DNA of 32,000 nucleotides from Alkalilimnicola ehrlichii MLHE-1 (GCF_000014785.1 NC_008340.1:2760001-2792000), one strand, 5' to 3'. Shown: positions 5,734 to 20,500, numbered from the stretch's first letter. Numbers and translations: made by a program. The notes: generated by a model not told the origin, from the sequence alone.

Positions 5734-6618
5734 TCAGCGCCTGCGGACCGGGATGTGGTCCGCCCTGATGCTGACGGTATCACCTTCGCGCCGCTGGGGC
5801 AGGCCCTCGCTGGCCCAGGCGTGGCCGTAGACCACCTCCCAACTGGCGGGGATGCGGCCGTCCGGCCCCCGGTAGGCCGCCTCGTAGGCCTGGCACATGG
5901 CCTGCAGCCGGCGCCGGGTGGTGAGACCACGGCCCCGTCCGCTTGCGGCGTTACGCGCCCCCAGGCCGCGCAGGTCGTGCAGCACCCCCATGGGGTCCCC
6001 GTAAGTCAGGGTGAACGACTCCATGTCCATCACCGGGTCGGCGAAGCGGGCCTGCACCAGGGCGTCCCCCACGTCGTGCATATCGATAAATTCGTGCACA
6101 TGGGGCTTGTCATCCACCTGCGCCCAGGCCGCGCGCAGCTCCTTCAGCGTGTCCGGGCCAAAGCTGGAGAACATCAGCAGCCCGCCGGGCCGCAGGACCC
6201 GCTGGAACTCGGCGAAGACCCGGTGCAGGTCCGGCATCCACTGCAGGGCGAGGTTGGAGAACACCATATCGACGCTCTCCGCAGCCAGCGGCAGGCGCTC
6301 GGCGTCGCCGCAGAGGGTGCGGATCGGCCGTAGCCAGCGGCCCCGGCGCCGGGTGGCCCGGAGCATGCTGGGGGCATGGTCCAGGCCAATCACCCGCGCC
6401 TTGCGGTAGTGATCCTGCAGTGCCCGGGTGCAGAAGCCGGTGCCACAGCCCACATCGACGATGATCGCGGGCTGCATCAGGATGACGTGCAGGCGCTCCA
6501 TCAACCGCTCGCCGACTTCCCGTTGGAGTACGGCGACCTGGTCATAGCTGTCGGCGGCCCGGTGGAAGTTACGGCGGACCTGGCGCTTGTCGAGAGGGGT
6601 TCGAGTCATGGTCGGCAT
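5734..6618 (-). CDS. bioC: Malonyl-ACP O-methyltransferase BioC
   Basis: SAM-binding VDVGCGTGF, BioC-like N-terminus KRQVRRNFHRAADSYDQVAVLQREV, and position in the bio operon. ATG at 6618 (MPTMTRT). The 556-aa ORF extension upstream runs through bioH in another frame. Confidence 0.9.
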   Translation of the reverse strand: MPTMTRTPLDKRQVRRNFHRAADSYDQVAVLQREVGERLMERLHVILMQPAIIVDVGCGTGFCTRALQDHYRKARVIGLDHAPSMLRATRRRGRWLRPIRTLCGDAERLPLAAESVDMVFSNLALQWMPDLHRVFAEFQRVLRPGGLLMFSSFGPDTLKELRAAWAQVDDKPHVHEFIDMHDVGDALVQARFADPVMDMESFTLTYGDPMGVLHDLRGLGARNAASGRGRGLTTRRRLQAMCQAYEAAYRGPDGRIPASWEVVYGHAWASEGLPQRREGDTVSIRADHIPVRRR

Positions 6619-8539: not shown

Positions 8540-9531
8540 CCCAGGTCCTCGGCCTCGGCCTGGGCGCAGGCGTGCGCCTCAAACCCCATGCCCAGACGGG
8601 CCAGCAGGCGGCGGTCCTTGTCGGCCTCCGGGTTGCCGGTGGTGAGCAGCTTGTCGCCGTAGAAGATGCTGTTGGCGCCGGCCAGGAAGCAGAGGGCCTG
8701 CAGTTCGTCGGACATCTGCTCGCGGCCGGCGGAGAGGCGGACGTAGCTGGCCGGCATGAGGATGCGGGCGACGGCGATGGTGCGGACGAATTCGAAGGGG
8801 TCGGGGGGCTCGACGCCGTGCAGCGGGGTGCCGGGGACCTGGACGAGCTGGTTGATGGGGACGCTCTGCGGCTGCACCGGCAGGCTGGCCAGGGTACGCA
8901 GCAGTTCGGCGCGGTCCTGGCGGGTTTCGCCCATGCCGATGATGCCGCCGCAGCAGGTCTTGAGGCCGGCGTCGCGCACCCGGGCGAGGGTGTCGAGGCG
9001 GTCCTGGTAGCTGCGGGTGGTGATGATTTCGTCGTAGTAGTCCTCGGAGGTGTCGAGGTTGTGGTTGTAGTAGTCGAGCCCGGCCTCGCGCAGGCGTTCG
9101 GCCTGGCCGTCGCGGAGCATGCCGAGGGTGAGGCAGGTCTCGAGGCCCAGGGCCTTGACCTCGCGCACCATGGCCTCGACGGTCTCCAGGTCGCGGTCTT
9201 TGGGCGAGCGCCAGGCGGCGCCCATACAGAAGCGGGTAGCACCGGCGTCCCGGGCCCGGCGGGCGGCCGCCACCACCTCTTCCACGGCCAGGATTTGCTC
9301 GCGTTCCAGGCCGGTGTCGTAGCGCACGCTCTGGGGGCAGTATTTGCAGTCCTCCGGGCAGGCGCCGGTCTTGATGCTGAGCAGGGTGCTGACCTGGACG
9401 GTGTTGGGGTCGAAGTGGGCCCGGTGGGTGGTCTGGGCTTGGTGGAGCAGGTCGTTGAAGGGCTGCTCGAACAGGGCCAGGACTTCGTCTTTAGACCAGT
9501 CGTGGCGGGGTGTTTGGGTTGTGGCGGTCAT
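8536..9531 (-). CDS. bioB: Biotin synthase BioB (radical SAM)
   Basis: [22 protein letters not shown] and [11 protein letters not shown] at 9531 (MTATTQ) gives an E. coli-like length; an in-frame alternative ATG lies at 9549. The ORF-track start at 9765 runs through a repeat element. Confidence 0.93.
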
Positions 9532-9572
9532 TGATTTGGTGGCTCCCATGCTCTTGGTGGCTCCCGGCTGGG

Positions 9573-9770
9573 TTGGCTTGAGGGGGCGGGCGCGGTTTCG
9601 GTCGGGCCGACTTTTGCGCACCGAGCAACGCAACAAAATGTCGGAGAAAAGGCGCGCCTGTCCGAGCGAAGCGAGTTCGCGCCGCCGACATTTTGTGAGT
9701 AGCGCAGGGAACCCCGAAGGGGTGCGCAATCGGAGGCCCGACCGAAACCGCGCCCGCCCCCTCAAGCCAA
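9573..9770 (+). repeat. Nested-palindrome element, copy A (36-bp perfect outer arms 9573-9608 / 9735-9770 around a 126-nt conserved core)
   Basis: I checked the arms base by base as exact reverse complements. The core GACTTTTGCGCACC...GGTGCGCAATCGGA is shared with copies B and C. Its internal 12-bp stem is ACAAAATGTCGG/CCGACATTTTGT. Confidence 0.9.
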
Positions 9771-9793
9771 CACGGCAACGTCCCGATCAGCGA

Positions 9794-9821
9794 ATCCTAT
9801 CACCGCGCGACTCACCGTCAA
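9794..9821 (-). promoter_or_regulatory. Candidate sigma70 promoter of bioBFHC (TTGACG-N16-TAGGAT)
   Basis: The minus strand reads TTGACGgtgagtcgcgcggtgaTAGGAT. The -35 is at 9816-9821 and the -10 at 9794-9799. Transcription would then cross element A before reaching bioB. Confidence 0.35.
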
Positions 9822-9846
9822 CCTCATTGCAGTTGCTTCGGTTTAC
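9817..9846. promoter_or_regulatory. Candidate BirA operator (bioO-like inverted repeat GTCAACC-N16-GGTTTAC)
   Basis: Resembles the gammaproteobacterial BirA site TTGTAAACC-N14-16-GGTTTACAA. It lies in the bioB/comF divergent region and overlaps the candidate -35. Confidence 0.4.
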
Positions 9847-9920
9847 CACCAATTTTCATTAAAGGGGCCGATCGGTGGCGCTACACTGGGTGGGGTCACT
9901 CGGATGAACGGAGCAATGCC

Positions 9921-10709
9921 ATGGACGGTATCCACCACTGGTTGCGGGCGATCGGTCACGGCCTGGACCGGCTCTATCCGCCCCGCTGCGTGCTTTGCGG
10001 TGAGCCGGGGCAGCCGCCGGCGCTGGATCTGTGTGCCGGCTGCCAGGCGGACCTGCCATGGGTGGTGAACCCCTGCGCCCGTTGCGGGCAGCCGTTGCCG
10101 GAGGACAGCGCGGCGGACGGGTTGTGTGCGGATTGCCTATGCTGGCCGCCACGGTTCGATAAGGCCGTGGTGCCGCTGGATTACCGGTTTCCGGTGGATC
10201 GCCTGGTGACCGGTTTCAAGTTCCATGGCGGCCTGGCCACCGGGCGGGTGCTGGGGACGTTGCTGGCACAAGCGGCGGGGGCGCGAGGGGAGGCGCTGCC
10301 GGAGGTGCTGGTGCCGGTCCCGCTGCACCGGTCTCGGCTGATTGAGCGCGGCTACAACCAGGCGATGGAGCTGGCCCGGCATATCACCCGGATCCTGTCT
10401 GGGCGGCGGGTCTGGCACGGGGTGCGGCGGGTGCGGGCGACCAGCGCCCAGAGCGGGTTGGACCGGGCGCGCCGGTCGGGGAATGTGCGCGGGGCCTTTG
10501 TGCTGGAGGGGGCGCCGCCGGCGCAGCACGTGGCGCTGGTCGATGACGTGATGACCACGGGGGCGACGCTGGATGAGATCGCCGGGTGTCTGAAGGCCGC
10601 CGGGGTGGAGGTGGTGGAGGCCTGGGCGGTGGCGCGCACCCCACCCCCGGCCCACCAACCGGGCGGCTCGCCCGCTGCGGGCGACGGCCCGGTCGGGCCC
10701 GATGGGTGA
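9921..10709 (+). CDS. comF: ComF-family protein (phosphoribosyltransferase-like, GntX/ComFC type)
   Basis: N-terminal Cys pairs CVLCG...CAGC...CARCG...CADC, LVPVPLHRSRLIERGYNQA, and the PRT motif VALVDDVMTTGATL. Confidence 0.85.
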   Translation: MDGIHHWLRAIGHGLDRLYPPRCVLCGEPGQPPALDLCAGCQADLPWVVNPCARCGQPLPEDSAADGLCADCLCWPPRFDKAVVPLDYRFPVDRLVTGFKFHGGLATGRVLGTLLAQAAGARGEALPEVLVPVPLHRSRLIERGYNQAMELARHITRILSGRRVWHGVRRVRATSAQSGLDRARRSGNVRGAFVLEGAPPAQHVALVDDVMTTGATLDEIAGCLKAAGVEVVEAWAVARTPPPAHQPGGSPAAGDGPVGPDG

Positions 10710-10711
10710 GG

Positions 10712-11593
10712 TCAGCCGCCCAGATGCAGGTCCAGCAATAGGCCCAGGAAGATCAGGCCGCCCAGCCAGTTGTTGTTGAGGAAGGCCCGGAAGCAGTCCT
10801 CCCGGCGCCGCTCGCGGATCAGCCACTGCTGGTAGGCGAACAGCGCGGCGGCGGCGGCCAGGCCCAGGTACCAGAAGGCACCGAGGCCCACCACCAGTCC
10901 GGCCGCCACCAGCACGGCGAGCATGACCCCCTGCAGCACGCCGATGATGGCCCGGTCGGCCTGGCCGAAGAGCACCGCCGTGGATTTGACCCCGATTTTC
11001 AGGTCGTCGTCGCGGTCCACCATGGCGTACTGGGTATCGTAGATGGTCGCCCAGAGCACGGCGGAGAGGAACAGCAGCCAGGCCACCGGGGCCACCGCAC
11101 CGGTCTGGGCGGCGAAGGCCATGGGGATGGCCCAGCCGAAGGCCGCGCCCAGGTGGACCTGCGGGAAGTGGGTGTAGCGCTTCATGAAGGGATAGGTGGC
11201 GGCCAGGGCGACGGCCACCAGTGAGAGCGCGATGGTGAGCGGGTTCATCAGCAGCACCAGCCCGAAGGCCACCAGGCAAAGCACCACGAACAGGGTCAGC
11301 GCCTCGCGCTCGCTGACCCGGCCGTTGGCCATGGGGCGGTGGGTGGTGCGCTTGACGTGGCCGTCGAAATCCCGGTCGGCGTAGTCGTTGATGACGCAGC
11401 CGGCGGCGCGCATGATCAGCACCCCCAGTACGAACACCACCAGTACCTTGAGGTCGGGCAGCCCTTTAGCGGCAATCCACAAGCCCCAGAGCATGGGCCA
11501 GAGCAACAGGAAGTTGCCGATGGGCCGGTTCAGGCGGGTAAGCTGGGCGTACTGCCAGGCGCGGTCGCGCAGGTAGTCGGCGGTCATCTCCAT
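10712..11593 (-). CDS. ubiA: 4-hydroxybenzoate polyprenyltransferase UbiA
   Basis: [16 protein letters not shown], the NDYADRDFD motif, and multiple TM helices. ATG at 11593 (MEMTADY), 5 nt after the ubiC stop. Confidence 0.92.
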
Positions 11594-11598
11594 GGCAC

Positions 11599-12147
11599 TC
11601 AATCCTCCAGGCTCTGCAGCAGGGGCGGCAGAAAGACTTCGGTCACCAGCAGGCCGGCATTGCCATACCACAGGCGCGAGCGGCGGGCCCAGCACCCGGC
11701 ACCGCCGCCGGGGACCCGGGCCGCCAGCGGGTCGCGGGGGCCAAGCCGGGCGATGCTGAGGGGCCCGCGGGCAACGGTGCGGCCGCGGAACAGCGCCCCG
11801 CCCAGGGGCGTGCGACCCAGCCGCGCCAGGCGCCGGCCATCGCCGGCCAGCGCCTCCGGCGGCATGATGGTGCGGGCGTAGATCCAGGCCTGGTCGCGGC
11901 TGCCGAGCAGCACCTCGCGGATGCGGGCGTGGCGCCCGTCCGACAGCTCCACCGCCCGGGCCTCATCGATACTGGGCCGGCCCCAGCGCTCCACCAGCAC
12001 GGTGACCTCGAGCCCGCCGGGCACGCTGCGTCGCAGCCGCGCGGTGAGCGAGCCGGGTTCGTCCAGCCACGCCTCCAGCCCGCGCGGCACCCTGCGTCGC
12101 GAGGGGTGGCGGCGCGGCCACCAGCTTGCCTCTTTGTTCCGGTACAA
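11599..12147 (-). CDS. ubiC: Chorismate--pyruvate lyase UbiC
   Basis: [22 protein letters not shown] and WARRSRL...LLVTEVFLP match the UbiC layout. TTG start at 12147 with GGAG 6 nt upstream; no in-frame ATG lies near the N-terminus. Confidence 0.8.
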
Positions 12148-12183
12148 ACGATTCTCCAGCTATCCAATCCAACCGGGGCCTGC

Positions 12184-12397
12184 TGTGGTCTGGCGGGGCG
12201 GAGCAGGGGCGGATGGTCGGTCAGGCCGACTTTTGCGCACCGAGCAACGCAGCGAAAGAGCGGAAAAAAGGCGCGCCTGTCCGAGCGAAGCGAGTTCGCG
12301 CCGCCGCTCTTTCGCGAGTAGCGCAGGGAACCCCGAAGGGGTGCGCAATCGGAGGCCTGACCGACCATCCGCCCCTGCTCCGCCCCGCCAGACCACA
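12184..12397 (+). repeat. Nested-palindrome element, copy B (44-bp perfect outer arms 12184-12227 / 12354-12397, 126-nt core)
   Basis: The arms are exact reverse complements, extendable to 48 bp with one mismatch. The core is identical to copy A except the internal stem pair GCGAAAGAGCGG/CCGCTCTTTCGC and one A/G. Confidence 0.9.
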
Positions 12398-12421
12398 ACA
12401 GTCCTCATACGGGGGAGGCAA

Positions 12422-14539
12422 TCAGACCTGGCCATAGCGCTCGGAGGCCCCGACCCAGCGCCTTACCAGCGGCTCCACCCGCTCCGGGTGCGCCTGCTGC
12501 AGCCGGTCGCCCAGTACCTGCACCCGCGGCAACAGGCCCGCATCCCGGTTGAGATCCGCCACCCGGTAGCTCAGTTCCCCGGTCTGACGGGTGCCGAGCA
12601 ACTCGCCGGGGCCGCGGATCTCCAAATCCCGCCGGGCGATCTCGAAGCCGTCGTTGCTCCGGCGCAGCACCTCCAGGCGCGCCCGCGCCGCCTGCGACAA
12701 CGGGCCATGATACATCAGCACGCAACTGCTTTCGGCCTCGCCCCGGCCCACCCGGCCGCGCAGCTGGTGCAACTGCGCCAACCCCAGCCGCTCGGCGTTC
12801 TCGATGATCATCAGGCTGGCGTTGGGCACGTTCACCCCCACCTCGATCACCGTGGTGGCCACCAACAGCCCGATCCGGCCGGCGGCAAAGTCCGCCATCA
12901 CCGTGTCCTTATCCGCCGGTTTCATGCGCCCATGCACCAACCCCACCCGGTGCCCGGGGAGGGCCGCCTGCAGGGCGGCGTAGGTCTCCTCCGCGGCCTG
13001 GGCCTCCAGCACCTCCGAGTCCTCAATCAGGGTGCAGACCCAATAGGCCTGCCGGCCCTGGGCCAGCGCGGCGCCGATGCGTGCCACCACCTCGTCCCGC
13101 CGAGTCTCCGAGACGGCCACGGTCTTCACCGGCTTGCGGCCCGGGGGCAGTTGGTCGATCACCGAGACGTCCAGGTCGGCGTAGGCGGTCATCGCCAGGG
13201 TGCGCGGGATGGGGGTGGCGGTCATGATGATCTGGTGGGGCTGGCTCCGCCCCCGGTGGCCCTTCTCCTTCAGGGCCAGGCGCTGGTGCACACCGAAGCG
13301 GTGCTGCTCGTCGACGATGACCAGCCCCAGGGCCTGGAAACGCACGTCGTCCTGGAACAGGGCGTGGGTGCCCACCACCACCGGGTAGTCCCCGGCCGCC
13401 AGCGCCGCCAGCATGGCCTCCCGCCGCCGCCCGGCAGCGCGCCCCGACACCCAGCCCACGGGGATATCCAGCGGCGCCAGCCATTCGTTGAAGCTGCGCC
13501 AGTGCTGCTCCGCCAGCAGCTCGGTGGGCGCCATGATGGCGGCTTGATAGCCGGCCTCCACGGCCCGAAGGGCGGCCAGGGCCGCGACCACGGTCTTGCC
13601 GGAACCCACGTCACCCTGGACCAGGCGCAGCATGGGCACCGACCGGGTCATGTCCTCCGCCAGCTCCCGGTCCACCCGGCGCTGGGCCTCGGTGAGCGCG
13701 AAGGGGAGTGAGTCCAACAACCGGCGGGTGAGGCGGCCGTCGCCGTGGATGGTGGGGGCGTCGGCGGCGGCCTGCAGGTGGGCGCGCAGCCGGCGCATGG
13801 AGAGGTGGTGGGCCAACAGCTCTTCCACCGCCAGCCGCTGGACACAGGGGTGGCGGCCCTCGACCAGCGGTGCGGTGTCGGCATCCACCGGTGGCTTGTG
13901 CACGTAGTACAGGGCCTCGGCCAGCGCGGGCAGCCCCAGCTCGCGGGTCAGTTCCGCGGGCAGCCAGTCGGGCATGTGCCGCGCCAGGGCCAGGGCCTGG
14001 TCGATGAGCTTGCGCAGGGTCTGTTGGTGCAGGCCCTGGGTGGTGGGATAGACCGGGGTGAGGCCGTGCGGGCCCTCGTCGCCGGCGCTGGCGCGGGGGC
14101 CCAGGCGGTACTCCGGGTGCACCATCTGCGGGCCGGTGGGGCCGGGGCGCAGTTCACCGAAGCAGCGGATGGGGGTGCCGGGGCGCATCTGCTGGCGCTG
14201 CCCCGGGTGGAAGTGGAAGAACACCAGATCGGCGCTGCCAGTGCCGTCGCTGATCTGCACGATGAGCCGTTTGCGCCGCCCCTCGGCGATACCGGCATGC
14301 TCCACCCGGCCGATGACGACGCCGGACTCCCCCGGGCGCAGGGCGCCGAGCCGGCGGACGGTGTCACGGTCCTCGTAGCGCAGCGGCAGGTGGAACAGCA
14401 GGTCCTGCACGGTCGCCAGGTGCAGACGGGCCAGGCGCTCGGCCAGTTGCGGCCCGACCCCGCGCAGCGCGGTGATCGGCTGGCCGGCCGGGTCCTGGTC
14501 GCTGGCGGATGCGCTGCTGGGGGCCTGGGGTTCACTCAC
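12422..14539 (-). CDS. recG: ATP-dependent DNA helicase RecG
   Basis: Walker A GDVGSGKT, DEQHRFG, QLHQLRGRVGRG, and an N-terminal wedge region. GTG start at 14539. Confidence 0.95.
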   Translation of the reverse strand: MSEPQAPSSASASDQDPAGQPITALRGVGPQLAERLARLHLATVQDLLFHLPLRYEDRDTVRRLGALRPGESGVVIGRVEHAGIAEGRRKRLIVQISDGTGSADLVFFHFHPGQRQQMRPGTPIRCFGELRPGPTGPQMVHPEYRLGPRASAGDEGPHGLTPVYPTTQGLHQQTLRKLIDQALALARHMPDWLPAELTRELGLPALAEALYYVHKPPVDADTAPLVEGRHPCVQRLAVEELLAHHLSMRRLRAHLQAAADAPTIHGDGRLTRRLLDSLPFALTEAQRRVDRELAEDMTRSVPMLRLVQGDVGSGKTVVAALAALRAVEAGYQAAIMAPTELLAEQHWRSFNEWLAPLDIPVGWVSGRAAGRRREAMLAALAAGDYPVVVGTHALFQDDVRFQALGLVIVDEQHRFGVHQRLALKEKGHRGRSQPHQIIMTATPIPRTLAMTAYADLDVSVIDQLPPGRKPVKTVAVSETRRDEVVARIGAALAQGRQAYWVCTLIEDSEVLEAQAAEETYAALQAALPGHRVGLVHGRMKPADKDTVMADFAAGRIGLLVATTVIEVGVNVPNASLMIIENAERLGLAQLHQLRGRVGRGEAESSCVLMYHGPLSQAARARLEVLRRSNDGFEIARRDLEIRGPGELLGTRQTGELSYRVADLNRDAGLLPRVQVLGDRLQQAHPERVEPLVRRWVGASERYGQV

Positions 14540-14569
14540 GGCTGAATTCCGTTGGCCGGGGCTCGGGGC

Positions 14570-14783
14570 GGGCGGCCGTGCCCGGTCTGCTCGGGGTCAT
14601 CATCGCTGGGGCCTCCGATTGCGCACCCCTTCGGGGTTCCCTGCGCTACTCGCGAAAGAGCGGCGGCGCGAACTCGCTTCGCTCGGACAGGCGCGCCTTG
14701 TTTCCGCTCTTTCGCTGCGTTGCTCGGTGCGCAAAAGTCGGCCCCAGCGATGATGACCCCGAGCAGACCGGGCACGGCCGCCC
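14570..14783 (-). repeat. Nested-palindrome element, copy C (44-bp perfect outer arms 14570-14613 / 14740-14783, 126-nt core, inverted relative to A and B)
   Basis: The reverse complement of 14614-14739 equals the copy B core with a single A-to-C change. The outer arm sequence is unrelated to B apart from the core-proximal GGCC. Confidence 0.9.
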
Positions 14784-14803
14784 TCCTGGGCATTGGTCAG
14801 GGA

Positions 14804-15187
14804 TTACGGCAGGACCAGGACTGCGTCCATCTCCACCTGGGCCCCCTTCGGGAGCTCGGCCACGCCGATGGCGGCACGGGCCGGATAGGGCTCGGCGAAG
14901 TACTCCTGCATGATCTCGTTGACCAGGCCGAAATGGCTCAGATCGGTAAGGAAGATGTTCAGCTTCACCACGTCGGCCAGCTTGCCGTCAGCGGCCTCGG
15001 CCACCGCCTGGAGGTTGTCGAAGACCCGGCGGACCTGGGCCTCCATGTCGCCCTCCACCAATTGCATGGTCTCCGGCACCAGCGGGATCTGGCCGGACAG
15101 GTAGACGGTGCGCCCGGCGCGGATGGCCTGGGAATAGGGGCCGATGGCGGCGGGTGCGCGGTCGGTCTGGATGGTCTTGCGTTCCAT
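14804..15187 (-). CDS. ridA: RidA/YjgF-family reactive-intermediate deaminase
   Basis: [12 protein letters not shown]...GQIP...KLNIFLTD...[27 protein letters not shown] at 15187 (MERKTIQ). Confidence 0.9.
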
Positions 15188-17869: not shown

Positions 17870-18350
17870 GGGGCAGTGACGGGGGAGTCACCCCGCCGAT
17901 CTTGCCTGCCCCACTCCCCGCCGCGCGGGCCGACGGCTTTCTCCCCGTCGTCGCGAGGGCCGAAGGCTTTCCCCGTCGTCGCGAGGGCCGCAGGCCCGTG
18001 GCGATCCAGGCGGTGGACTGCCACGTCGGCTTCGCCTCCTCGCAGTGACGAGGGGGCCCCTCCCCCGTCATCGCGAGGGCCGAAGGCCCGTGGCGATCCA
18101 GGCGGTGGACTGCCACGTCGGCTTCGCCTCCTCGCAGTGACGAGGGGGCCCCTCCCCCGTCATCGCGAGGGCCGAAGGCCCGTGGCGATCCAGGCGGTGG
18201 ACTGCCGCGTCGGCTTCGCCTCCTCGCAGTGACGAGGGGCCCCTCCCCCGTCATCGCGAGGGCCGAAGGCCCGTGGCGATCCAGGCGGTGGACTGCCGCG
18301 TCGGCTTCGCCTCCTCGCAGTGACGAGGGGGCCCCTTCGCAGTGACGGTG
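17870..18350. repeat. Array 1 of GC-rich quasi-palindromic units (about 4.3 tandem copies, period 91-92 bp)
   Basis: The unit GTCATCGCGAGGGCCGAAGGCCCGTGGCGATCCAGGCGGTGGACTGCC(A/G)CGTCGGCTTCGCCTCCTCGCAGTGACGAGGGGGCCCCTCCCCC starts at 17975, 18067, 18159 and 18250. Confidence 0.9.
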
Positions 18351-18372
18351 GGGGCGGGCTCGCGCTTTCCCA

Positions 18373-19044: not shown

Positions 19045-19300
19045 CAGCGTCATCGCGAGCCCCCCGCCCCGCTGCGCGGGCCCGAATCAACGAGGAACGG
19101 GGCACCCCCGGTCATCGCGAGGGCCGAAGGCCCGTGGCGATCCAGGGCGGTAGACTGCCACGTCGCTGCGCTCCTCGCAGTGACGGTGGGGATGGGTCCG
19201 CTCCCGCAGTGACGGCGGGGGCAGGCCCGCTCCTCGCAGTGGCGGTGGAGACGAGCCCGCGCCCTGCAGTGACGGGGCGGCACCGCCTGCGCCGTGGCGC
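19045..19300. repeat. Array 2 of the same family: one full unit (about 19110-19185) followed by four ~30-bp half-unit repeats
   Basis: GTCATCGCGAGGGCCGAAGGCCCGTGGCGATCC...CTCCTCGCAGTGACGG. The half-units C(T)CC(T)CGCAGTG(A/G)CGG start at about 19171, 19201, 19230 and 19262. Confidence 0.85.
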
Positions 19301-20239: not shown

Positions 20240-20500
20240 CCGCCCGCTGCGCGGGCCCATCATCGCGAGGGCCGGAGGCCCGTGGCGATCCAGGCGGTAG
20301 ACTGCCGCGTCGGCTTCGCCTCCTCGCAGTGACGGTGGGGGCAACACCCCCGTCATCGCGAGGGCCGGAGGCCCGTGGCGATCCATAGCGGTGGACTGCC
20401 GCGTCGCTGCGCTCCTCGCAGTGACGGTGGGGGCGAGGTTCGTCCCGCGGTGACGGTGGGGCGGCGCCGCGCCTTGCGGTGGGGGTGGGTCCGCGTCGCG
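20240..20500. repeat. Array 3 of the same family: two full units (about 20259-20335 and 20352-20428) followed by degenerate half-units
   Basis: Same unit and orientation as arrays 1 and 2. It is preceded by CCGCTGCGCGGGCCC, as is array 2. Confidence 0.85.

Follow-up and report, generated by a model that had tools for sequence, protein, structure and literature searches.

Three intergenic repeats within a 32-kb stretch of the Alkalilimnicola ehrlichii MLHE-1 chromosome (NC_008340.1:2760001-2792000, hereafter the window) share a 126-nt core set between long inverted arms that are exactly complementary within each copy and differ between copies. Across a second strain and a sister species, these stems drift at an approximately neutral rate through mirrored changes only, and the core inverts. 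We read the repeat as a non-autonomous fold-back element in which the loop and core are selected and the stems are kept complementary by arm-to-arm templated DNA copying, an interpretation that we hold with about even confidence. The apical loop would then be the ancient, sequence-constrained part, common to hairpin elements of other phyla and phage contigs; about 90 nt of asymmetric core would be conserved within the Alkalilimnicola lineage; and the 12-bp and 37- to 44-bp helices would be free to drift in sequence. An original prediction, made from the window alone, had described the three copies and their perfect stems; absent from it were the insertion polymorphism, the flipping of the core, and a 20-nt apical loop that recurs across phyla and is the most conserved part of the element.

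Architecture and mirrored stem changes

Each copy is laid out as an arm, the 126-nt core and the reverse complement of the arm. Copy A (9572-9771, plus strand) has perfect 37-bp arms at 9572-9608 and 9735-9771 around a core at 9609-9734, copy B (12184-12397, plus strand) has perfect 44-bp arms at 12184-12227 and 12354-12397 around a core at 12228-12353, and copy C (14570-14783, minus strand) has perfect 44-bp arms at 14740-14783 and 14570-14613 around a core at 14614-14739. The copies lie where the original prediction had placed them, except that the arm of copy A is 37 rather than 36 bp long. In B and C the inverted repeat runs 1 to 3 bp past the 44-bp perfect arm, after one mismatch. A 19-mer and a 28-mer probe from the core have exactly three matches in the window, where shuffled sequences lead us to expect none, and rod-like folding of the copies scores z = -12.5 to -14.1, whichever strand is taken and whether it is treated as RNA or as DNA.

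Our Alkalilimnicola sample comprises five distinct copies: the three in the window, one from the second strain (GCA_049200435.1, locus L026, 98.9% identical to the window), and one, with an incomplete right arm, from the sister species, a metagenome-assembled genome (GCA_007123475.1, locus L030; RecG 90% and DNA about 85% identical). The basal core helix, which in copy A pairs TTGCGCACC (9614-9622, plus strand) with GGTGCGCAA (9721-9729), is identical in all five, sister species included, and the asymmetric segments between the core helices, GAGCAACGCA and GAGTAGCGCAGGGAACCCCGAAGGGG, are likewise unchanged. Above them, a perfect internal 12-bp stem (9633-9644 with 9685-9696 on the plus strand in A; 12252-12263/12304-12315 in B; 14704-14715/14652-14663 in C) encloses the apical hairpin. 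Its loop module, CTGTCCGAGCGAAGCGAGTT(C), occupies 9658-9678 in A and 12277-12297 in B, both on the plus strand, and 14670-14690 in C on the minus strand, and in A is closed by GGCGCG/CGCGCC (9651-9656/9678-9683).

Outside the 12-bp stem, the core of the three window copies varies solely in its A-tract (AGAAAAGG, AAAAAAGG and AAACAAGG), and the stem itself varies pairwise, being ACAAAATGTCGG/CCGACATTTTGT in A and GCGAAAGAGCGG/CCGCTCTTTCGC in B and C; this pattern, as predicted, is found in all copies. Core identity is 99% between B and C and 90 to 91% between A and either of them, with nearly all of the difference in the 12-bp stem. The arms, in contrast to the core (89 to 99%), are 57 to 75% identical between copies, about the figure for unrelated G-rich sequences, and their termini are merely loosely alike (GTTGGC, TGTGGT, GGGCGG, TGTTGT). 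The core also contains CCCCGAAGGGG, which reads C(UUCG)G on the opposite strand, the side hairpin named in the original prediction. This side hairpin (9712-9722, 12331-12341) changes from CCCC-GAA-GGGG to CCCC-GGA-GGGG in the second strain (L026 6276-6290), and among apical triloops of other taxa the most frequent change is likewise GAA>GGA, which suggests that these mini-hairpins are fixed apart from their triloops, which are free to vary. The three copies hold no credible open reading frame, no promoter or terminator consensus was found inside the element, and a direct target-site duplication (TSD) of at least 3 nt is absent, the flanks being ctgg/acgg, ctgc/acag and agga/gccc. In these three copies the early view that the repeat lacks coding capacity, a TSD and a conserved terminal inverted repeat (TIR), and is not an ordinary miniature inverted-repeat transposable element (MITE), is borne out.

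The strongest regularity lies in how the stems change. Over the core and the 14 arm-proximal bp, the five copies give 44 pairs and 220 cells, and every cell is Watson-Crick. Fourteen pairs (21 cells) have changed on both sides, and no one-sided change, G:T or unpaired cell occurs among the 44 pairs in the five copies. None of 500 shuffles did as well, and slid controls pair at 32 to 49%. The internal stem exists in three variants (A, B/C and L030), every difference between them mirrored. At site B, the arms of the two strains differ at 10 positions and by a 2-nt indel, all mirrored, so that the second strain keeps 42 of 42 bp perfect, and are 75% identical, compared with about 98% in the surrounding DNA. 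The original prediction had called the stems hypervariable; this is too strong for site A, whose arms have diverged about as far as their flank (24/37 identical versus about 60%), and only site B, compared between strains, looks faster than its surroundings.

A trio of orthologous loci carrying the same loop outside Alkalilimnicola (L054, L070 and L144) has arms with 16/95 and 8/58 mismatches in two members and homogenized arms (1/57) in the third, with a CG>TG double change present on both arms. Template switching is known to homogenize and extend the arms of inverted repeats and to yield compensatory changes in one step (PMC8794818, PMC5453318, PMC13100816). Because all 21 changes are double, because orthologous arms that drift at about the neutral rate are still perfect over the part that is readable, and because homogenization in the trio is confined to one lineage, copying or conversion explains the stems better than pairwise selection does. 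Of the two origins proposed at the outset for the perfect stems, the DNA-level one is favored; nothing suggests the other, that stems carry copy-specific information.

Insertion, persistence and core inversion

All three copies are intergenic and lie in a housekeeping region, whose RecG has the same sequence as that of A. ehrlichii MLHE-1 (100% identity). Copy A falls between the divergent starts of bioB (about 9534, minus strand) and comF (9921, plus strand), copy B between the recG stop (12422) and the ubiC start (12147), both genes being on the minus strand, and copy C between the ridA stop (14804) and the recG start (14539). In the sister species, the ridA-recG and recG-ubiC spacers measure 52 and 53 nt and carry no element, so that sites C and B are empty; the corresponding spacers in L158 and L159 (8 to 95 nt) hold no element, and three relatives more distant than the sister species have all three sites empty. 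Removing its 214-nt element leaves window site B collinear with the empty spacer, so that the insertion was clean and duplicated no target sequence. Sites B and C are insertions in which the element arrived as a unit. Copies A and C are identical in the second strain.

Site A has a different history. The sister species carries an orthologous copy there, and the flank on the comF side aligns at about 60% identity. Its arms have the same length (37 nt) and are identical at 24 of 37 positions (about 65%) and changed at 13, a drift comparable to that of the neutral flank; the 14 nt of the right arm that can be read before the contig ends are perfectly complementary. The core is flipped and otherwise differs only in the 12-bp stem and, slightly, at the basal internal loop. 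Site A is old, and the element can persist vertically. Since its arms are still paired, arm perfection is not due to youth.

This age bears on whether the repeat is an ordinary transposase-mobilized miniature element, of the REPIN/RAYT or MITE type, whose arms would be young, and hence perfect, TIRs. Such an element would be intergenic, palindromic, multicopy, non-autonomous and polymorphic for insertion, as this one is. The core also has GTAG before a GC-rich hairpin (GAGTAGCGCAGGG...), an arrangement known from GTAG-tagged REPs (PMC3733652), the window holds a second repeat family that is REP-like and tagged CGTC/GACG, and short-read assemblies of the same strain end inside the arms, which is consistent with a multicopy inverted repeat. 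The arms, however, are too variable between copies to serve as a shared recognition site, no TSD flanks them, and copy A is shared with a species of about 85% coding DNA identity after 13 of 37 arm positions have changed, its readable 14 nt still paired. In REPINs the arms are conserved and the spacer varies (PMC3116915), the reverse of what is seen here. No transposase, recombinase, reverse transcriptase or RAYT is encoded in the window, nor is a RAYT in the 21-kb second-strain locus. We consider this explanation improbable.

The arms could also have been inverted copies of the local target. We rejected this possibility, because the arms resemble the empty sites of three relatives no more than shuffled controls do, and because the flanks of site B by themselves, arms excluded, account for the length of the empty site. 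Being unlike the empty sites, the arms appear to come with the element.

Site B has been rearranged more extensively between the strains. Divergence across 9772-14569 is a mosaic when compared with L026, close to 0% around copies A and C and 1 to 5 differences per 100 nt (about 2%) from mid-recG to comF, a pattern that suggests a recombination tract containing copy B. Next to the recG stop, before the arm begins, the two strains have 24 nt of unrelated sequence (12398-12421; L026 6110-6133), and the second strain has 13 extra nt (6344-6356) beyond the right arm; the hexamer GACTGT is common to both, at differing distances from the arm. In each of the two diverged orthologous pairs, window B against L026-B and window A against L030-A, the asymmetric core has the opposite orientation relative to its flanks. 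The L026-B core carries the A>C variant of copy C.

A mechanism that would account for the mirrored stems is templated synthesis within the element, by template switching between the arms or by hairpin-templated repair, which would keep the stems exactly complementary: a new mutation would be erased or copied to the other arm in one step. Strand switching from arm to arm, or plain recombination between the arms, would invert the core. The element may act as a single-stranded hairpin or a cruciform whose loop is read by a partner, and a requirement that both strands fold, as in a cruciform, would likewise disfavor G:T. The asymmetric core could be shielded by selection or by gene conversion between copies, for which the A>C change shared by copy C and L026-B may be compared.

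Core inversion also invites a more specific scheme, a chromosomal rolling-hairpin element in which a basal nick (for example, by an HUH nuclease reading the loop or core) is followed by unfolding and by copying that regenerates the arm and inverts the interior. A perfect outer stem around an asymmetric interior in both orientations, as seen in two of two diverged pairs, fits this scheme; origins of HUH Rep proteins similarly carry a conserved loop on variable stems, and the core holds GAA-loop hairpins beside GTGCGC-like tracts. Homologous recombination or template switching between inverted repeats of 37 to 44 bp would explain the flipping equally well, though, and a single basal nick-and-copy event does not alone explain the perfect internal 12-bp stem. 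With no nuclease gene identified and no evidence of an extrachromosomal form, we judge the scheme decidedly improbable.

We give almost no weight to a third account of the flipping, that the repeats are invertons which regulate adjacent genes. It would draw on the two core orientations found between strains and species and on the position of copy A between a promoter-like site and bioB. The core itself contains no promoter-like sequence, the window no recombinase gene, and B and C lie between codirectional genes, downstream of stop codons. The inverted repeats moreover differ between loci, so that no single site-specific recombinase could serve all copies.

The promoter-like site is a sigma-70-like match with a TG extension (TTGACG-16-TAGGAT, 9794-9821, minus strand), a consensus match only, which lies outside copy A and is not part of the repeat. 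Transcription from it would cross copy A into bioB, and, if the promoter is real, the 5' leader of the bioBFHC transcript would include the entire hairpin, in the form complementary to the motif strand. Next to copy C (14479-14569), the recG reading frame of A. ehrlichii is 19 codons longer at its N terminus than that of the sister species and is preceded by about 70 nt that the latter lacks; as this extra sequence directly adjoins the copy, the annotated GTG start of recG may be an artifact of the insertion region. On each strand the basal helix at the core ends (9609-9622, 9721-9734) reads GGTGCGCAA(A/T), which we take to agree at 8 to 10 of 11 bases with the arm that XerC binds in gammaproteobacterial dif (GGTGCGCATAA). 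A pair of dif-like half-sites, inverted and separated by about 100 nt, would be reminiscent of the attP that the CTX phage forms by folding; an XerD-like arm is absent.

The second repeat family of the window is unrelated and consists of 92-nt units (17922-18355, 19106-19275 and 20245-20461), four of them in tandem between rpoZ and gmk and further copies between gmk and yicC and between yicC and rph. Each unit is a palindrome tagged CCCGTC...GACGAGGGG and containing GGCCGAAGGCC, and the family looks like a CGTC-tagged REP or BIME by its likeness to those described (PMC3733652). Short-read contigs of the same strain stop at this family as well.

The apical loop beyond Alkalilimnicola

The 21-mer CTGTCCGAGCGAAGCGAGTTC occurs in more than 120 metagenome contigs, a lower bound, from human gut (GC 0.44 to 0.5) and from sludge, soil and sediment (GC 0.6 to 0.7). 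In 18 contexts with distinct flanks, the flanks of an instance pair with each other at a mean of -38.9 kcal/mol, compared with -23.1 kcal/mol when cross-paired between instances, and the loop lies mostly at a hairpin tip, stems being only weak in 4 of the 18. Several metagenome instances share the Alkalilimnicola architecture of long perfect outer arms and an imperfect interior (e.g., L090, with 31-bp arms). The loop is closed in two ways, either by a variable stem, CGAGGA-motif-CGCAG and a second variable stem or, as in the window, by a variable stem that abuts the 20-nt loop directly. With its 20-nt module at a hairpin apex and stems unrelated between families, the window element belongs to a proposed superfamily of hairpin elements capped by CTGTCYGAGCGRAGCGAGTT. 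A variant loop (C6>T) is found in Ralstonia solanacearum megaplasmids (128 records, 2 to 4 places each) and in Parabacteroides distasonis, and a degenerate form of the motif occurs in 21 IMG/VR contigs, mostly of low GC and with short stems. Changes are tolerated in the triloop (GAA, GGA, GCA, AAA, AGA), at C5/C6 and at the last base; GAGC..GCGAGTT is invariant.

The module has the form C-TGTCCGAGCGAAGCGA-G-TT, a GC-GAA-GC mini-hairpin flanked by tandem G.A/A.G, and from its sequence may be read as a 2-bp GC helix with a triloop, tandem G.A/A.G pairs and then an asymmetric bulge. GCGAAGC is a classic hyperstable DNA mini-hairpin, and the GA-helix-GA arrangement is one that we take to resemble hammerhead stem II or a K-turn. 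We rejected a hammerhead or other ribozyme loop, because the likeness ends at the CUG..GA-helix-GA arrangement, with no third helix and no Rfam match. The original prediction had pointed to Rfam for comparison, and no family there matched at gathering or permissive thresholds: Rfam 15 (hammerhead, twister, pistol, hatchet, 6S and Y RNA included) gave no gathering-score match in the window and nothing relevant at E<=5 on 9400-15000, and no match on the loop motif in the 6 metagenome and 20 viral loci scanned.

Other searches delimit the distribution of the element. The loop motif is absent from Escherichia coli genomes, the motif and its complement turned up nothing relevant in the searchable open-access full-text literature, and a plasmid BLAST with the whole of copy A gave no match. 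A metagenome scan with the core probe GGGAACCCCGAAGGGGTGCGCAA found no match either, so that this part of the core is lineage specific. We discarded 23 matches of the 19-mer TTGCGCACCGAGCAACGCA to genome contigs, all in coding sequences, as chance, and phage-database matches to a 31-mer, just 17 to 21 nt long, as probably chance. At 20 loci, the 30 neighboring genes are a mix of unrelated housekeeping functions and include no transposase, integrase or reverse transcriptase.

Several loop-bearing loci have further structures nearby. Gut, Ralstonia and Parabacteroides versions (L037, L104, L131, L151 1590-1640, L155 and others) carry a second conserved hairpin 10 to 20 nt after the loop hairpin, of the form CTTnTTGGTTaCTTTTGG...CCAAAAGTGAC, with an invariant G.T wobble on the motif strand; it is absent from the A. 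ehrlichii copies, and the gut-type copies are too similar to one another for covariation. A family of low-GC phage contigs (L171, L176, L177, L179 and L180) has the loop in an intergenic spacer, with a RAGATH-1 hammerhead ribozyme on the other strand at a distance of 240 to 630 nt; the association is seen in a single lineage and is at present anecdotal. In the same family, a twister-P1 match in L179 stays below threshold (52.6 bits, where the gathering score is 67.2), and L177 holds a tRNA together with a permuted tmRNA. One gut contig with two loop-motif elements has at its end a CRISPR array (L131 1-420; Rfam CRISPR-DR49, repeats of 47 nt), which is probably unrelated to them.

Whether the conserved strand works as DNA or RNA appears to differ among taxa. 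In direct alignments of superfamily arms, whose instances are not independent, the motif strand shows 41 G.T/T.G mismatches versus 16 A.C/C.A. This excess, together with wobble pairs that are conserved in some types, supports a single-strand or RNA reading there and suggests that in the wobble-keeping taxa the motif strand acts as a single strand, possibly RNA. For Alkalilimnicola, where there is no wobble, orientation relative to flanking transcription is mixed (A and B antisense, C sense) and the core flips, the data fit mirroring at the level of DNA, or a constraint that both strands be able to fold.

The repeats might accordingly be structured noncoding RNAs, either rods of about 200 nt or cis-acting hairpins of untranslated regions, with a loop that binds a partner and stems maintained by compensatory selection at the RNA level. 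The extremely stable folding, the excess of G.T over A.C and the conserved wobbles of other types speak for this, as do a loop that in sequence resembles an RNA motif (tandem sheared G.A beside a short helix with a variable triloop, like the stem-II side of the hammerhead or a K-turn) and the position of copy A within the likely bioB 5' leader. Set against these are 21 Alkalilimnicola stem changes without a single one-sided G-C/G-U step, which is unusual for RNA helices, and an orientation that is inconsistent with respect to transcription, reversed at site B in the other strain and with the motif antisense to genes in a phage family. The element also has no predicted promoter or terminator and no Rfam match, permissive thresholds included. 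We think such RNAs unlikely as an explanation of the Alkalilimnicola repeats, while granting them some weight.

Several observations count against our preferred reading, a fold-back element with templated stems. The Alkalilimnicola sample is only five distinct copies, one with a truncated right arm. Template switching accounts for the mirroring and not for the excess divergence of site B between strains or for its rearranged flanks. The asymmetric parts of the core have not been corrected to a perfect palindrome, so that selection or gene conversion must be invoked. Elsewhere in the superfamily, one high-GC subfamily keeps tandem T.G/G.T on the motif strand at several loci, and the second hairpin found in gut, Ralstonia and Parabacteroides types has a conserved G.T wobble. 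Finally, no partner protein, transposition mechanism or phenotype is known.

A bolder extension, which we offer as speculative and consider doubtful, is that the near-invariant 20-nt loop defines a previously unrecognized class of elements across phyla and phage contigs, with hairpin-templated stems and a flip-flopping interior; these would be either the chromosomal counterpart of rolling-hairpin replication or self-renewing DNA hairpins that carry a new structured-RNA or ribozyme-like module. The repeats in any case offer a natural example of helices that are free in sequence and always complementary, without wobble intermediates, and so bear on the old question of whether stems are made and kept by selection on pairs of mutations or by templated copying in one step. 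A near-invariant 20-nt motif that extends from Gammaproteobacteria to gut Bacteroidales-type and phage-like contigs is unnamed in Rfam and in the searchable literature; such conservation normally marks the binding site of a conserved machine or a catalytic or structural RNA or DNA module. A partner of the loop, if found, could reveal a new mechanism of mobility or regulation. In practice, elements that break short-read assemblies and can flip matter for assembly and annotation.

Comparison with known systems

Among systems that operate through folded DNA, integron attC sites are also read as a folded single strand, with a stem whose sequence is largely free and whose structure matters. An attC site conserves the base of its stem (the R and L boxes) and extrahelical bases, and sits at cassette boundaries beside an integrase. 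The repeat described here, in contrast, is conserved at its tip, its stems lack extrahelical bases, and it has no integron context: its arm ends carry no R''/R' boxes (RYYYAAC ... GTTRRRY), and its neighbors are bioB, comF, ubiC, recG and ridA. The terminal repeats of parvoviruses and adeno-associated virus offer a closer likeness in form, with a perfect outer stem, an asymmetric interior in two orientations and one arm regenerated from the other. Those repeats are the ends of a linear single-stranded DNA genome and are processed by a Rep nickase, whereas the Alkalilimnicola elements are internal to a bacterial chromosome and have no known Rep.

Template-switch, or quasi-palindrome, mutagenesis produces the same kinds of change, namely one-step mirrored multinucleotide changes, homogenization or extension of arms, and local inversions (PMC8794818, PMC5453318, PMC13100816). 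It is a general process rather than an element family, however, and leaves the conserved loop and core and the mobility of the repeat unexplained.

The remaining comparisons are with interspersed repeats. Like ERIC/IRU, Correia, Rickettsia RPE and YPAL sequences, the element is 100 to 200 bp long, forms a long hairpin, is intergenic and is polymorphic for presence and absence. In those families the termini are conserved and a short TSD is usual; the element has neither feature. With REP sequences and REPINs (PMC3116915, PMC3733652) it shares short length, intergenic position, multiple copies, hairpin formation, non-autonomy, long vertical persistence, and the co-occurrence of a REP-like family in the window. 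A REP is recognized by GTAG (or CGTC) beside a 20- to 40-bp palindrome (PMC3733652); in the core, GTAG occurs next to a GC-rich hairpin, as GAGTAG-CGCAGGGAACCCCGAAGGGGTGCG, and the adjoining sequence is not a simple palindrome and sits inside a larger conserved unit. REPs and REPINs conserve their arms and vary in the spacer or loop, whereas here the arms are copy specific, perfect and much longer (37 to 44 bp; 57 to 75% identical between copies) and the loop and core are conserved. Although it falls outside the definitions of REPINs and MITEs, because it has neither conserved arms or TIRs nor a direct TSD, we see the element as a new variant of palindromic intergenic repeats, one that works like a REPIN or a palindromic MITE.

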